From an uncultured Clostridia bacterium (GTDB lineage: Bacteria > Bacillota > Clostridia > Christensenellales > CAG-314), in assembly GCA_947053925.1 (NCBI GenBank), contig CAMRUG010000006.1, forward strand, positions 4,350-68,349: a stretch of 64,000 bases of DNA, read 5' to 3'. Of the stretch, positions 2,934-44,650 are shown in pieces. The notes beneath the pieces are model-generated. The model was not told the DNA's origin. It saw only the letters and a program-made list of their open reading frames with translations, and made no database searches. Each line of letters starts with the position of its first letter. The first letter of the stretch is position 1. Made by a program: the position numbers and the translations under genes.

Positions 2934-3760
2934 CTAATCTTTTCTTCCGTCTGTAAGCAACGGAGAATTTGTCTGCTGTAATACCCTTAACTGCGAACGC
3001 GCCATATTGTTTAACTGTTTCAAACGCTCTGCTTGCGGAATTTGTTGTTCTATCAAATAAGCGTTCAAACTTTCCATATTTGCAATAACAAGTAATTGTT
3101 CTATCGTTGCGTAGTCTCGGATATTGCCCTTTTTGTCAGGGTTTTCTTCCCGCCACTGCGCCGCCGTTTTGCCGAACAAAGCCACATTCAACAAATCTGC
3201 CTCGTCTGCGTACACAAACTTTAATTGCTCTTCCGAAAGCGTAGGAACAATATTCTCCTTGATAGCGTCTGTATGTATATGGTAATTTACTTTTGCCAGT
3301 TCACGCTTTGCCGTCCATTCTAAAGCCTTTTGTTCTTCTACTTTTAACCGCTGGAATTCTTTGATAAGATACAACTCGAATTCGACTGAAATCCAACTTG
3401 CAAATTTAAAGGCAATATCTTTATGCGCGTAAGTGCCGCCGTAACGCCCGCCTTCGATACAATACCGATAGCATTTGTTTTTTCTATCCATTGTTGAGCA
3501 GTTAAAACAAACGAATTTTCGCCCGAATCGTTTTTAATGTATTCGAATTCTAATACATTAAAATCGGGGTTATGCAAAGTTTCCCACAAACCTAGATACT
3601 TGATAGTAGAATAATTCTTTAACCAATTTATTATAACCATACCGGAATGTTCCGAATTCTTGGCTTTGGCTATATCGGTTAAACAAATATAATCATTGTC
3701 GTCAACACTGCTGTTATATCTGACATTTATTCCCTTTACAAAAACTTCTTTATTCGCCAT
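2934..3760 (-). pseudogene. KilA-N domain protein, frameshifted
   Basis: Two overlapping ORFs (3344-3760 and 2934-3491) in different frames. Together they give a contiguous KilA-N-type protein (...IGIVSKAG | RYGGTYAHKDIAFKFASWISVEFELY...). The frame switches in the GCGGGC run near 3445-3452. Confidence 0.75.
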
Positions 3761-3984
3761 TTTAAAAAGGCTCCTTTTTCACAGTAGCGGAATCGATACT
3801 GCTATTATATCAATAATCAAAACAAAAAGCAATGCTTGTCAAATATTTATTGCTAAACGTAATTTTACGCTTTATTTACAAGAATTTCGTTTTGTCGGTT
3901 TTTGTAGTTTTTTGTCGAAAAATGCAAACGGGTTATGTTTAAAAAGGCTAAAAGATTGAATAGTAGCTCTTTTAAACCAACTGC

Positions 3985-4040
3985 GGTAATGAAACCGCTT
4001 ACGGCTCGGCAATTTTTGTTGCAAAGGACGACAATAATAG
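3985..4040 (-). repeat. terminator-adjacent dispersed repeat, copy E
   Basis: The minus strand reads ATTATTGTCGTCCTTTGCAACAAAAATTGCCGAGCCGTAAGCGG..., immediately after the T-run of the 4040-4070 terminator. Confidence 0.7.
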
Positions 4041-4070
4041 AAAAAGCCCCTGCTACCTACGCAAGGGCTT
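4040..4070 (-). terminator. intrinsic terminator of the sigma/peptidase operon
   Basis: Stem AAGCCC(C)TGC / GCA(A)GGGCTT followed on the minus strand by T5. Confidence 0.6.
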
Positions 4071-4182
4071 TGTGCCGCAAATTTGTCAGTCGCCTACGGC
4101 TAGCGAACATTGTTTTAAAAACAATCTCTCTTTTTAAATAAATTTACTTTGTGTAAATAACCGTGTTTGTTACTTTATTGCA

Positions 4183-4869
4183 CTATTTAACCGCGAGCAT
4201 TTGTTCAACTATTTCGGTAACGCGGTTTTGGTTAGCGGCATTGTCTACTTGTAAATAATATCTAAAGCCGTTGTATTCAAATGTTGCCAACATAAAAATT
4301 TCTGTTTTAACGGTTTGAACCGACACTCCGCATATTACAGATTTTTTTTCACAATTATTCCATTTATTTAAAACATCAACTCGAGTTTTGTTATCTGTAA
4401 TGATAACTTTAATAAGCTCTCCTGTCGTACCGTTTTCCATTTCTTCCGATATAAAAATCATATCGTTACGGTCTTTTAAATTGTAATAAAACTCAGTTAA
4501 TATTGTATCAACACTATCATACAAATCAAGATACAACATATTTTTATTGTTTTTTTCGGAATATTCCTTTATGTTATAGCTTACAATTTCTCCAACGTAA
4601 TCGCCGTCAACACAATAACGGTTCTTTGTTTCGGTCAACGTTACGGGAAGAACTATTGCAAGGCACAGCAAACACGCCGTAACTACCGAAGCAATAACAA
4701 GTGTAAGTTTGTTCTTTTTCTTGGCAGCAACAGGCTTGTGCTCAGTATTCTGCTGAGTTTGCGGAAAGATATTCTCCTCCGCAATACGCACCTTTATTTT
4801 GTCGAGCAGTTCCTGTTTGTGTTCGGGGTCTTGCTGTTCGATAAGGTCGTGAACGTCTCTTTCTCTCAT
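4183..4869 (-). CDS. single-pass membrane protein (possible anti-sigma-like partner)
   Basis: 228 aa: a charged N-terminal ~55 aa, one TM segment (LTLVIASVVTACLLCLAIVLPV), and a C-terminal ~150-aa extracytoplasmic domain. It is the last gene of the sigma operon. No zf-HC2 motif was seen. Confidence 0.55.
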   Translation of the reverse strand: MRERDVHDLIEQQDPEHKQELLDKIKVRIAEENIFPQTQQNTEHKPVAAKKKNKLTLVIASVVTACLLCLAIVLPVTLTETKNRYCVDGDYVGEIVSYNIKEYSEKNNKNMLYLDLYDSVDTILTEFYYNLKDRNDMIFISEEMENGTTGELIKVIITDNKTRVDVLNKWNNCEKKSVICGVSVQTVKTEIFMLATFEYNGFRYYLQVDNAANQNRVTEIVEQMLAVK

Positions 4870-4955
4870 TTATATCTCCTTAACTTACATTATGCAACAA
4901 CTACGGTCAAAATATTAACTGCTCTGTTGTTTTAACGTAAGAAAAACAACAGATG

Positions 4956-5777
4956 CTAATAAATATTGACTATATAAGCCGCATTCAGATTATTTGAATC
5001 AATTTTGTAATATGCTAATGACTGCGGACTTCTTCCCGTTGCAACTTTCAAATATGTATCTGTACGGAACAAGCCGTTAGCGTTGTAGTACTCAACCTGA
5101 TAATATCCGTAAGCCACCATTATATGCGCGCCGGATATTGTTATAGGATCAATCGCATCGTATCCATCATACATACTTATATCATAAACTTCACCGGCCT
5201 TAGTTAAAAGGGCAATAACTTTGTTTTGGTCTAGCGCAGCCTTACATTCGTCAAAATTGAGTTTACCCAACCAGTTACGCACGCTTGTATATGTTAGATT
5301 GTGCCCGCGATTGTTGACGTAGGTTTGCAGTCCCGTTTTAAAATCGTTTTCGCTCACGCCCACGTCGTCCACATTAGTACGCATAAGCGTATACAGTTCG
5401 TTCATAACTGCCGGCACATAGGTTGTGTCTTGCAAACGGTATAAACCGCTTGCTTCATAATACGATACCCAATTGGGAATCAGGTTAGGAAAATACTTAT
5501 CGTAGAAGCCTACTATCGTAGTTCCTGCTACTGTACCGCAAGCATTGGTCATATTGGTTAATTGTCTGTATCTAGGACATTTTCCATCAGTTTCGTTTGA
5601 TAATTTTTCTATACGGTTAGTATAATAAATTTTTTCGCTTGTGGAACGTGGACTTATAAATGGAGCGTCAGCGTATCTGATATCGGTTTCAGCAACTGCC
5701 GTAAATGTTGCAACGCCGAATATCATCGAAAATACCAGCAACAACGGCAAAAGAACAAACTTCCTTACTTTTGTCAT
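4956..5777 (-). CDS. secreted papain-fold cysteine peptidase-like protein (C39-like/C10-like)
   Basis: Signal peptide after the ATG at 5777 (RBS AGGAG). Candidate catalytic Cys in NMTNACGTVAG and His in SGAHIMVAYGY. It is homologous along its length to the ORF at 49882-51093. Confidence 0.6.
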   Translation of the reverse strand: MTKVRKFVLLPLLLVFSMIFGVATFTAVAETDIRYADAPFISPRSTSEKIYYTNRIEKLSNETDGKCPRYRQLTNMTNACGTVAGTTIVGFYDKYFPNLIPNWVSYYEASGLYRLQDTTYVPAVMNELYTLMRTNVDDVGVSENDFKTGLQTYVNNRGHNLTYTSVRNWLGKLNFDECKAALDQNKVIALLTKAGEVYDISMYDGYDAIDPITISGAHIMVAYGYYQVEYYNANGLFRTDTYLKVATGRSPQSLAYYKIDSNNLNAAYIVNIY

Positions 5778-5842
5778 TTGTGTACTCCTATTAAACATTA
5801 TTATATACGAAACTTTTACCGTTGTAAACAAGTTGACGTCCA

Positions 5843-6379
5843 CTAATTTTGCAATTTTTCTCTAATCTTAGCCAGTATCTTTTGCAAACGTTTGTAAATT
5901 GCCGCTTTTGTAACACCGTAACACTCTGCAATTTCGGCGAAAGTTTGATTACGGAAGAAACGGCGTTCGATCAAATCGCGTTCATGTGCGTCAAGTTCGG
6001 AAATAACACAATTGATATCAATTGCCGAATCAGTATCTTTGGAACTTACTTTGTGTAAAGTCAACGCTAGGTTTATGTGATTTTCTTCGCTCAGTTTAGT
6101 GTGGCTATCCAACTTGTTGTAATCGAAAGCCACATTGCGCACGATTTTATACAACCAGTTATAGCCGTCGCTGTTCGGATCGAATTGATAAATAAAATGT
6201 GGCAATTTGACAAACACGTCTGCAACAACGTCATCTGTATACAACTTGTTTGACAGATAACTGTACGCTACACAACGCAAGTGATTTGCTATGTAATTGT
6301 AAAGTTTATCAAACGCCGATTCATCACCGCGTTTGTAACGAGACAAGTAGATATTTACCTTGTAAGAATATTTTGACAT
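5843..6379 (-). CDS. sigma-70 family (ECF-type) RNA polymerase sigma factor
   Basis: 178 aa with a region-2-like N-terminal half and the region-4 HTH pattern ERDLIERRFFRNQTFAEIAECYGVTKAAIYKRLQKI. Confidence 0.8.
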   Translation of the reverse strand: MSKYSYKVNIYLSRYKRGDESAFDKLYNYIANHLRCVAYSYLSNKLYTDDVVADVFVKLPHFIYQFDPNSDGYNWLYKIVRNVAFDYNKLDSHTKLSEENHINLALTLHKVSSKDTDSAIDINCVISELDAHERDLIERRFFRNQTFAEIAECYGVTKAAIYKRLQKILAKIREKLQN

Positions 6380-7051
6380 TTGTACAACCCTAAGTTAATG
6401 TAGGAAAACGCGCATCGATAACCGTTGCCGACTTGGACAGAACCAGACTTTAACAAAGTATCTTAACACGTTTACCGTTTGTAAATTAGTACTAATTTTT
6501 ACTGTATGTAGACCGAATACGTTTAGTATGTTTTTAGCAAAAGACAGTTTTCTCTTTAACTTCGACCGTAAGGTAAACGGAGAATATCTTAGGCTAATGG
6601 AATATTACGGCAAAATACAAAAAAATAGCCTCCTTAATAATACTGTTTTTAACGCCTGTTTGTTTCCCAAATATGACGACTAATTTTTTTGTTTGATAAA
6701 ATAAGTAGTATTATACAACGAAAAATTTACGCGCAAACAAAATATGAAAAAATGCAATCTGTAAATTAAACGTCGTTTTTTAAACGGTAATGAACAAACG
6801 CCTTTTTAACGGATAATGTGTTTATTAGATTATACTTAAATTTATTTTACAAATACAAAACAAACTTGAATCTGATTACCTCAGCCGTACAACTTGCCGA
6901 CCGACACCGACTGAGTGTATCAAAACGCAAATATCTGTAATTTACAGTTATATTTTACGACCGATAAAAACATTTCTACTAAATATTTATTACACAAAGT
7001 TAAAATACTTTTTAGTTTATTTTCAGTTATTTATACTGTAATAAAAATAAG

Positions 7052-7080
7052 TTTACATTTTACTCAATTTAGTTTATAAT
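7052..7080 (+). promoter_or_regulatory. sigma-A type promoter
   Basis: TTTACA-N17-TATAAT, about 70 nt upstream of the ATG at 7150. Confidence 0.5.
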
Positions 7081-7149
7081 TTTTGCGAATATTGTTTTTT
7101 AGGCGTTTAAACTTGCCCTCAACAGGTTAACGCTAAAATAAAGGCGATT

Positions 7150-7911
7150 ATGAAAGAGATAGTTAGACAGAACTTTAAAGTTAAATTAGTAGAAACAGAA
7201 GAAGAATTGTACAAAGTCCGCAGACTGCGCTACGAAGCGTTGATACTGGGACACCGCGACCCGTCGACTATTACGTTTGAAGAATCTTTTACGGAAGAGG
7301 ACCGCGATTGCGACAATTTGATTGTAGTAGACACTACTAACGATACGGTTGTAGGAAGTTACCGTTTTATTACAAAAGAAATGTTTGAGCGTCCTAATTG
7401 CAGGATAGAAAGTTTTTATTCCGAATGGGGATTTAATATAGACGACTTAAAGAAGTTGCCTTACAAAATTTTGGAGTTAGGCAAGGCGGCGGTACACAAA
7501 GATTACCGCAACGGCGTTGTAATTAAACTTATGTTAAAGGGCGCCAGCGAATACGCCAAAGAACACGGCTTACGTTTGTTATTCGGCATAATAACGATGC
7601 CCGAGATGACGGACGCCGACTTACGGAACGTATTTAGTTACCTGTATTACAGAAGTCCGCAAACAGACCCTAATATGCAACCCTACGCGTTAGAGCCGAG
7701 TATACCTATGGATTCTGTTCCCATTGAGGAGATAGACGTACTCAAAGCCAAAAGACAAATACCTACCGCTGTTAAAGCGTATCTTGCCTTAGGCTGCAAA
7801 TTTGCCAAGTCGGCTTGTCCCCGTAACAAATTACTGCACCACGCCGATATGTTGATTATGCTGGACATTGAAAATATGAACAAAAGATACGCGCAGTATG
7901 TTTTGAAATAA
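7150..7911 (+). CDS. GNAT-family N-acyltransferase (N-acyl amino acid synthase / hemolysin-like, Acetyltransf_5 type)
   Basis: 253 aa with the pattern VRRLRYEALI...DRDCDNLIVVDTTNDTVVGSYRF...LELGKAAVHKDYRNG, characteristic of the OlsB/NAS-like GNAT group. Confidence 0.7.
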   Translation: MKEIVRQNFKVKLVETEEELYKVRRLRYEALILGHRDPSTITFEESFTEEDRDCDNLIVVDTTNDTVVGSYRFITKEMFERPNCRIESFYSEWGFNIDDLKKLPYKILELGKAAVHKDYRNGVVIKLMLKGASEYAKEHGLRLLFGIITMPEMTDADLRNVFSYLYYRSPQTDPNMQPYALEPSIPMDSVPIEEIDVLKAKRQIPTAVKAYLALGCKFAKSACPRNKLLHHADMLIMLDIENMNKRYAQYVLK

Positions 7912-8137: not shown

Positions 8138-8515
8138 GGGGGTGTTTGTAAGATTCGCCCGACGTTAAAGGATATTTGATAAGCGTACCGCAGTGCATCT
8201 GCGTTAAAAATGCAAACTTAAATTAAACGCTAATAATAGCACAAATACAAGCCGTTCTTACGGAATGGCTTACGCCGCTTAATTATACCGGCTCGTAGGC
8301 TTTCGCTTTTTTGCGTGGCGGAATGTCCTGCGTCATAATACGCAGATAGAATATTAGCGGATGCGACAAAACGTTGGTATTTGAAATTTAATTTGTTGCG
8401 GACAACGGTTGGTTTGTTTGTTTTCCGTCCGTTGCGACTCAAAAATAAACTGTGTACGGAGAAAGTCTTATAGTCTTGCGTTGGTACGCGGGTGCAAGTC
8501 CCGCCACCTCCACCA
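8138..8515 (+). ncRNA. ssrA: tmRNA (SsrA)
   Basis: The 5-prime GGGGGTG pairs with the 3-prime CACCTCC-ACCA, including a G3:U pair. The T-arm GGTACGCGGGTGCAAGTCCCGCC is tRNA-like. An internal tag frame at 8229-8282, GCT AAT AAT ... TAC GCC GCT TAA, encodes ANNSTNTSRSYGMAYAA. Confidence 0.9.
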
Positions 8516-44585: not shown

Positions 44586-44650
44586 TTAAAATAAAAATTG
44601 TCATCGCTTAACAGCGGCTCGACAATTTTTGTTGCAAAGGTAGACAATAA
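44586..44650 (-). repeat. terminator-adjacent dispersed repeat, copy C
   Basis: The minus strand reads TTTTATTGTCTACCTTTGCAACAAAAATTGTCGAGCCGCTGTTAAGCGATGACAATTTTTATTTT, with the 10-bp hairpin AAAAATTGTC / GACAATTTTT. Confidence 0.75.

Follow-up and report, generated by a model that had tools for sequence, protein, structure and literature searches.

The minus strand of contig CAMRUG010000006.1, from an uncultured Clostridia bacterium of the Christensenellales (CAG-314), carries a three-gene operon that encodes an ECF-type (extracytoplasmic function) sigma factor, a putative exported cysteine peptidase of the papain fold and a single-pass membrane protein. The analysis covered 64,000 nucleotides of this contig, referred to below as the window. 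The operon probably represents a self-contained three-part envelope signalling module, a variant of sigma/anti-sigma signalling without an earlier description. We tentatively favour, as a quite possible though not assured reading, that the membrane protein is a minimal anti-sigma factor which pairs specifically with the peptidase through its outer domain, and that the sigma factor controls the genes of both proteins.

The layout put forward in the original prediction, in which a sigma gene is followed by genes for a papain-fold peptidase and a single-pass membrane protein and then by a terminator, was recovered in full (Table 1). In the public records all three proteins are annotated merely as 'hypothetical protein', and the stretch itself was found in DNA runs, mainly of mouse gut and faecal metagenomes. 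The peptidase-like open reading frame was listed in a form that begins at a GTG (5843-4956). The true start is likely the ATG at 5777, since an AGGAG is found 7 nt before it and the resulting N-terminus (MTKVRKFVLLPLLLVFSMIFGVATFTAVA, followed by ETD) has the appearance of a typical Gram-positive export signal.

Table 1. Features of the operon and its immediate surroundings; positions are those of the window
Feature	Position	Strand	Description
Weaker motif copy CTAAAC-N17-AGTAAAAA	6526-6496	minus	147 nt upstream of sigma start; score 12.1
Sigma gene	6379-5843	minus	ECF-type, 178 aa
Candidate ECF-type promoter GTGGAC-N17-GGTAAAAG	5843-5813	minus	begins at last base of sigma stop codon
Housekeeping-type promoter-like site TTTACA-17-TATAAT	5828-5800	minus	11/12 consensus positions; overlaps ECF-type site
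Peptidase gene	5777-4956	minus	ATG start, 273 aa; signal peptide residues 1-29
Peptidase Asn78	5546-5544	minus	active-site residue
Peptidase Cys80	5540-5538	minus	in NACGTVAG
Peptidase His218	5126-5124	minus	in GAHIMVAYGY
Peptidase Asp240	5060-5058	minus	third acidic residue
Peptidase-membrane spacer	4955-4870	minus	86 nt, structured RNA
Membrane-protein gene	4869-4183	minus	228 aa, single-pass
Cytoplasmic helices	4863-4774	minus	residues 3-12 and 15-32; AlphaFold2
Transmembrane helix	4707-4636	minus	residues 55-78; one predicted, KKKNK just before
Outside alpha/beta domain	4629-4186	minus	residues 81-228 (148 residues); compact fold 84-226 in model
Intrinsic terminator-like hairpin	4071-4043	minus	11-bp stem, 6 GC pairs, then T run; closes operon

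The product of the first gene is an ECF-type sigma factor, as originally proposed; it belongs to group 4, regions 2 and 4 being the only ones present. It scored 76.5 bits against TIGR02937 (sigma70-ECF; cut-off 42.9) and matched the Pfam families Sigma70_r2 (residues 26-87), Sigma70_r4 (residues 126-174) and Sigma70_ECF. None of the named sigma factors appears to be its equivalent, the NCBIfam equivalog models scoring far under their cut-offs (e.g. SigV, 53.8 against 190), and a word-based search with the protein retrieved the protein itself alone.

A scan of species-representative genomes yielded 51 loci in about 50 species-level genomes, all of them from uncultured gut Clostridia labelled Christensenellaceae, Christensenella, Clostridiales or Candidatus Scatosoma, with mouse, rabbit, goat, sheep, roe deer and human as hosts. 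The order sigma, peptidase, membrane protein was observed in about 47 of 51-52 loci (tblastn and extraction of open reading frames), with stereotyped spacers of some 50-60 nt between the first two genes and typically some 8 nt between the last two. All-against-all clustering of the open reading frames in the 51 loci returned sigma (47), peptidase (50) and membrane protein (45) as the sole conserved families, which confirms, at the level of sequence, that the gene order is not due to chance. Co-occurrence of the peptidase family with ECF sigma factors, on which the original prediction had staked itself beforehand, holds in some 90% of the loci. The next commonest neighbours were an XRE regulator (11 loci) and a hybrid kinase (6 loci), and beyond these two no conserved fourth component or regulon neighbour was found around the trios. 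Nor do the trios have in common a small peptide gene that might encode a quorum signal, which was also searched for; a 70-aa protein is encoded in 10 loci of one subclade.

The trio extends to a distant human-gut branch, in which the peptidase is 38% identical and retains the Cys and His, and to a locus with a 394-aa long-form peptidase that has an extra N-terminal region and adjoins a Mob_Pre relaxase gene (L056). Some genomes contain multiple copies, either in tandem (two in L022) or on one contig (L023 and L029). Several variations on the arrangement were observed. In the window lineage the spacer between peptidase and membrane genes measures 86 nt as compared with some 8 nt in most relatives; its RNA includes the ribosome-binding site of the membrane gene and is predicted to fold with -21 kcal/mol (z = -2.6). 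In 10 loci of one subclade the sigma gene is immediately preceded by a gene for an XRE-family helix-turn-helix protein of about 105 aa (e.g. L015:998-1321), often with genes for conserved 70-aa and 122-aa proteins further upstream. In the distant human-gut branch a fourth gene follows the trio (L054:5743-6699 and L055:5749-6705); its product of 318 aa has a weak match to BtrH_N (C39-like). The membrane-protein gene of this branch thus has a gene for a papain-like protein on either side.

The second gene product fits the earlier proposal of a secreted, papain-fold, C39-like protein encoded between the sigma and the membrane protein genes. The Cys and His that had been picked out as candidates in NACGTVAG and GAHIMVAYGY align as a dyad, and in 50 homologues that are 32-59% identical to the window protein Asn78, Cys80 and His218 are invariant, with Asp (44/50) or Glu (6/50) at position 240. 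An AlphaFold2 model built on these homologues (predicted local distance difference test score, pLDDT, of 92) places Cys80 at the opening of a helix (80-93), His218 at the opening of a strand (218-232) and Asp240 on the adjacent strand (235-246). Pfam family Peptidase_C39_2 (PF13529) was matched by 16 of the 50 family members at E < 0.1 (best 3.6e-6), and the best Foldseek matches in the PDB were the papain-fold immunoglobulin G (IgG)-cleaving enzymes IdeC, Mac-1 and IdeS, at modest significance (E 2e-4 to 5e-3, probability 0.91-0.97). The protein has the appearance of a functional Cys-His-Asp peptidase with a distant relation to the C39-like group, and fold and residue conservation together suggest that the exported product is catalytically competent.

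The possibility that this papain-fold protein cuts nothing, and instead binds a ligand beside the membrane sensor as a non-catalytic co-receptor, would agree with its score below the Pfam threshold and its structural distance from solved peptidases, yet it is highly improbable given the catalytic residues that are kept throughout the 50 sequences and in the distant human-gut branch as well, as dead enzymes seldom retain a full catalytic set.

The peptidase family is small and anonymous. A word-based search retrieved 333 homologues, all unnamed or 'hypothetical' and from uncultured Clostridiales, and an exhaustive profile search of 1.84 billion representatives yielded 542 clusters (50% identity). 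Neither the peptidase nor the membrane protein could be assigned to a family of NCBIfam, PHROGs or PADLOC, for which reason a known phage or defence system was rejected, and no homologue was found among 72,556 plasmid and 50,697 phage records. Searches of the PDB by sequence, with the single proteins and with family profiles, gave nothing meaningful for either protein. A true C39 bacteriocin-processing peptidase can be ruled out: the protein is exported and stands alone, is not fused to an ABC transporter, and has no conserved small peptide gene nearby.

Three further observations concern the N-terminal parts. In a subfamily of about 385-415 aa the catalytic domain is preceded by some 120-150 additional residues, which may be a pro-domain (L056:4001-5185; P0192, P0205, P0222). 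Within the signal peptide Phe20-Gly21 (5720-5715) is unusually conserved (F 31/50, G 25/50), and since the hydrophobic stretch is 23 residues long, the N-terminus might remain as a membrane anchor instead of being cleaved. Finally, a near-invariant Arg-Tyr opens both folded outside parts, in the peptidase at Arg34-Tyr35 (5678-5673, RYADAP) and in the membrane protein at Arg84-Tyr85 (4620-4615, RYC), in each case a few residues past the membrane-spanning segment. It could be a recognition or cleavage site that the two proteins share, or a coincidence.

The membrane protein was described beforehand as single-pass with an outside domain of about 150 residues, in good agreement with the one predicted transmembrane helix and the 148 residues beyond it. 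Its AlphaFold2 model (pLDDT 87) consists of two short helices, a disordered linker, the transmembrane helix and the outside domain. That a recognisable zf-HC2 motif is lacking was likewise borne out: residues 1-54 contain no Cys and consequently no HxxxCxxC motif. Judged by the anti-sigma classes as defined in PMC8103513, the protein does not have a class I domain (zf-HC2 / RsiW-RseA type), having no zinc motif, two helices as opposed to four in a domain of about 80 residues, and no Pfam match in 46 members. The size and the helix count of the cytoplasmic head do fit class II (CnrY/NepR type), whose short domains of about two helices wrap the sigma factor, without a relation in sequence. No Pfam or NCBIfam family was found for the protein, and a profile search returned just the same small unnamed family. 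The head is conserved (Ile10 in 41 and Glu11 in 32 of the 46 sequences), among close relatives more so than the outer domain. For the latter the fold matches were DcrB and TM1622 (probability 0.94-0.97) and also PsbP, all weak with E > 0.02, and at lower probability (0.2-0.44) the lipocalin-type folds of apoM and FABP. The architecture and the linkage suggest that the protein may be an anti-sigma factor.

A conserved element in front of the peptidase gene may connect the pair to the sigma factor. Alignment of the spacers between sigma and peptidase genes revealed a family motif, G-T-(A/G)-A-A-C, 17 nt, (G/A)-G-T-A-T-A, which in about 31 of 45 loci precedes the start of the peptidase gene by 48-68 nt. 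An AAC in the -35 element and a spacing of 17 nt are hallmarks of ECF promoters, and the sigma-W consensus TGAAAC-N16-CGTATA is close to the motif; by its sequence it does not fit a housekeeping promoter. When nine sites from a single clade were used to train a matrix and this was applied to the 35 other, held-out loci, a site was found at the same position in nine of them, where 0.33 were expected (P = 4e-11). Upstream of the sigma gene such a site occurs in 9 of 45 loci only, and two loci without a spacer site (L007 and L012) have a strong one some 215 nt upstream of the sigma gene instead. A scan of the 64-kb window gave 14 sites of at least 11 bits against 10 expected, so that the copy at 6526-6496 is by itself not significant and no regulon can be read from the scan. 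The motif is kept in pairs that have no sigma gene directly upstream (L022 copy 1, L023 and L045), and L058, which has no sigma gene, keeps both the ECF-type and the housekeeping-type promoter-like element. On the simplest reading of these sequences the neighbouring sigma factor, or a paralogue of it, would drive the peptidase/membrane pair. The original prediction had offered two roles for the peptidase, that of sigma-controlled output and that of site-1 protease, and this promoter lends the former indirect support.

Indirect evidence that the peptidase and the outer domain of the membrane protein work as a pair comes from a comparison of the window with a near-identical strain (L057). The flanks of the two are 98-100% identical, as are, at 95-100%, the sigma gene and the signal peptide and, at 98%, the spacer, the cytoplasmic head and the transmembrane helix; identity falls to 70-80% in the mature peptidase region (5680-4931) and to 59-76% in the region of the membrane protein's outer domain (4630-4190). 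The proteins follow the same division. Sigma is 97% identical (synonymous divergence, dS, of 0.03), the signal peptide 100%, and head plus transmembrane helix 97% (dS 0.06), as opposed to 77% for the mature peptidase (dS 0.80) and 60% for the outer domain (dS 1.07). A dS of 0.8-1.1 in the swapped parts versus 0.03-0.09 in the kept parts, with a ratio of non-synonymous to synonymous divergence (dN/dS) of 0.17-0.30, is the sequence signature of allele replacement by recombination and not of local positive selection. The same hot spots were observed in the contigs of a second strain. The mosaic appears to split the module as a signalling model would, with sigma and cytoplasmic head on one side and peptidase and outer domain on the other. 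Across species, correlations of identity between the domains were uninformative, all parts co-varying with phylogeny.

These observations suggest the following mechanism. The peptidase and membrane genes would be a tightly coupled pair, transcribed from the promoter in the spacer; the motif and its position are observed, and its reading by the neighbouring sigma factor is the presumed step. The membrane protein would span the membrane once with its N-terminus inside, where the two-helix head may hold the sigma factor as an anti-sigma domain of minimal, class II-like size. Because the two genes are coupled over 8 nt and both outside domains have been replaced jointly between near-identical strains, the 148-residue outer domain may be expected to form a specific complex with the peptidase. 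The docked peptidase, engaged or activated by an outside cue, could then cut the outer domain of its partner near the membrane, which would open the way for intramembrane proteolysis and release of the sigma factor, and the freed sigma factor would raise expression of the peptidase and of fresh anti-sigma factor, that is, of an output plus a negative feedback. The last part, a cut-and-release switch in which the peptidase cleaves its partner (the site-1 role of the original prediction), is speculative and in our estimate rather doubtful. Co-expression in a 1:1 ratio and co-swapping favour a physical complex, and the conserved cytoplasmic head disfavours a mere tether.

Several points weigh against this model. 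The head measures only some 32 residues, has no zinc motif and matches no anti-sigma family. Known systems are not known to co-express a site-1 protease 1:1 with its substrate. Five pairs have no adjacent upstream sigma gene (L058, L018, L023, the first copy of L022, and L045, in which the sigma gene lies downstream of the pair), so that the pair can exist without a sigma factor in cis. The ECF-type site of the window itself scores low (7.2 bits, held-out matrix), and a good housekeeping-type site overlaps with it. Two runs labelled as metatranscriptomes (X24 and X25) cover positions 3900-7200 of the window with contigs of a related strain; because these contigs are 28 kb long they are most likely DNA, and the runs do not constitute evidence of expression. 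The window peptidase scores 17.8-18.1 bits against Peptidase_C39_2 (E = 0.004-0.005), under the gathering cut-off of 24, and its matches to IdeC, Mac-1 and IdeS are weak (template-modelling score 0.31-0.36, root-mean-square deviation > 10 A). Finally, the mosaic rests on essentially one well-aligned pair, and on two or three strains in all.

The peptidase might be output only, an effector that is activated by the sigma factor and acts on host, dietary or cell-wall proteins, with the membrane protein serving as an ordinary anti-sigma factor for some other cue and the two outside proteins never touching. The ECF-like promoter directly before the peptidase gene and the intact catalytic residues are in line with such a role, as are the zymogen-like extra region of about 120-150 residues in some members and the fact that the best fold matches are secreted IgG-cleaving enzymes. 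Independent proteins would however not be expected to be encoded 8 nt apart in nearly all loci, or to have just their two outside domains swapped jointly, and the pair stays together even where the sigma gene has been lost. We consider this explanation unlikely.

We regard as quite unlikely that the operon encodes a protease with a tethered inhibitor or chaperone, in which the outer domain protects the cell or aids maturation, the membrane protein is not an anti-sigma factor, and the sigma factor is a dedicated activator under other control. Co-transcribed pairs of a cysteine protease and its inhibitor are well known (PMC2873492), and the tight gene coupling, the low-probability lipocalin-type matches of the outer domain (apoM and FABP, see above) and a cytoplasmic head that resembles no anti-sigma family would all suit such a pair. 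The conservation of the two-helix head, which exceeds that of the outer domain among close relatives, would be odd for a tether, and the sigma linkage in some 90% of the loci also argues against it. In addition, no staphostatin structure was found among the 50 best fold matches, in which DcrB and TM1622 did better.

The preferred reading, an anti-sigma factor in complex with its peptidase, can be compared with several known systems. In the sigma-W/RsiW, sigma-V/RsiV and sigma-E/RseA systems, where release is by regulated intramembrane proteolysis, an ECF sigma factor is likewise encoded together with a single-pass, N-in membrane protein that bears an outside domain, and canonical modules also share the AAC-type -35 element 17 nt before the -10 element. 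The present operon differs from canonical ECF modules in that the anti-sigma candidate does not directly follow the sigma gene and that its cytoplasmic part consists of two helices, not of a four-helix or zinc-binding domain, in that the operon includes a secreted cysteine peptidase of its own, and in that the conserved ECF-type promoter comes after the sigma gene and not before it. A review of 2020 names as site-1 proteases the serine enzymes DegS/DegP, SipS/SipT and Prc, and no cysteine peptidase (PMC7593790). In two anti-sigma factors of Firmicutes, RsiV, a lysozyme receptor, and RsgI, which undergoes autoproteolysis in its SEAL domain, the trigger is an outside domain that binds a protein or glycan or cleaves itself (PMC4183432, PMC5014341, PMC10328401). 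There the partner is a host enzyme or a polysaccharide, and cleavage is carried out by signal peptidase or autocatalytically by the domain, whereas here the partner would be the operon's own peptidase; no relation to RsiV or RsgI was found by sequence search of the PDB or among the fold matches.

A genetic tie between an ECF sigma/anti-sigma pair and a cysteine-type protease domain does exist in DdvS/DdvA of Myxococcus xanthus and in ECF54-type modules, where the anti-sigma factor is linked to a caspase-like CHAT protease (PMC11506125). In those Gram-negatives the CHAT domain, of caspase fold, is fused or adjacent to the anti-sigma factor, in contrast to the separate exported papain-fold protein of the Clostridia. 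The staphopain/staphostatin, SpeB/Spi and Bacteroides fragilis Bfp/Bfi loci, with co-transcribed protease and inhibitor (PMC2873492), resemble the present one in the tight coupling of a secreted papain-clan protease gene to a small partner, which can be membrane- or periplasm-located. Their partners lack a cytoplasmic head and a linked sigma factor and have lipocalin-like folds (in the staphostatin/Bfi type an eight-stranded barrel that blocks the cognate protease) or propeptide-like folds, which were not clearly recovered here. With Peptidase_C39_2 and BtrH_N (Pfam clan CA) the peptidase shares N-x-C-G at the Cys, G-x-H-x-M-V at the His and weak but repeated profile matches, and it differs from them by its score below cut-off, the lack of an ABC-transporter fusion and of a double-glycine substrate nearby, and its own fixed gene context. 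Finally, the agr and com specificity groups show a comparable mosaic polymorphism, in which the outside sensing or processing parts are swapped as a block and the cytoplasmic signalling parts are conserved. Unlike in agr/com, no signal-peptide gene was found beside the trio, the regulator is a sigma factor and not a two-component system, and the polymorphism is seen in two or three strains only.

As to novelty, the claim that a cysteine peptidase between ECF sigma and anti-sigma genes had not been described held up, as a search of the literature found none. Nothing relevant was found either on ECF sigma factors with a cysteine, C39 or papain-type site-1 protease, and the main text of the large ECF re-classification paper contains no peptidase partner of this kind.

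The surroundings of the operon contain a few further elements. A transfer-messenger RNA (tmRNA) gene at 8138-8515 (Rfam, 113.6 bits), 1.8 kb away from the operon, was the only Rfam match near the locus, and no riboswitch was found in the 770-nt region upstream of sigma. Between the tmRNA and the operon lies a GNAT (Acetyltransf_5) gene (7150-7911), which the 770-nt non-coding stretch adjoins. A syntenic relative, L058:4565-6503, has the tmRNA and GNAT genes, the peptidase/membrane pair and genes for an S-component and a DUF1893 protein, and lacks the sigma gene. Just past the terminator a 36-nt sequence (4002-4037) recurs at 44615-44650 with 3 mismatches and also on several contigs of related strains, and thus represents a short dispersed intergenic repeat. 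Further on, two overlapping open reading frames (2934-3760) each match half of a KilA-N domain, which indicates that this gene is frameshifted; its N-terminal half (3447-3744) is another region in which the window and L057 diverge strongly.

Bacteria commonly sense their surroundings through ECF sigma/anti-sigma pairs, one of their most widespread means of doing so, and the trigger is known for a minority of the groups. The operon described here is a compact module under strong conservation. Its likely trigger component, an exported cysteine peptidase, is encoded alongside and tightly coupled to the membrane partner, and for two of its three proteins no family match reaches the threshold. Should the peptidase act on the anti-sigma factor, it would add a new protease class to regulated proteolysis, in the form of a three-gene system that is transferable to a laboratory host. 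The furthest-reaching version, which we hold to be improbable, is a polymorphic outside-in signalling device made of allele-matched pairs of peptidase and outer domain, with the peptidase acting as the site-1 protease and thereby releasing the sigma factor. If true, the peptidase would be the first site-1 protease of the cysteine type in an ECF pathway, and the swapped, matched outside domains and the several paralogous modules per genome would define specificity groups, like the agr/com pherotypes, that could serve in the gut to detect different proteins of the host, the diet or competitors. Christensenellales-type commensals are linked to host health and have hardly been studied at the molecular level. 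In these organisms the domain-precise swapping of alleles suggests selection on outside specificity.

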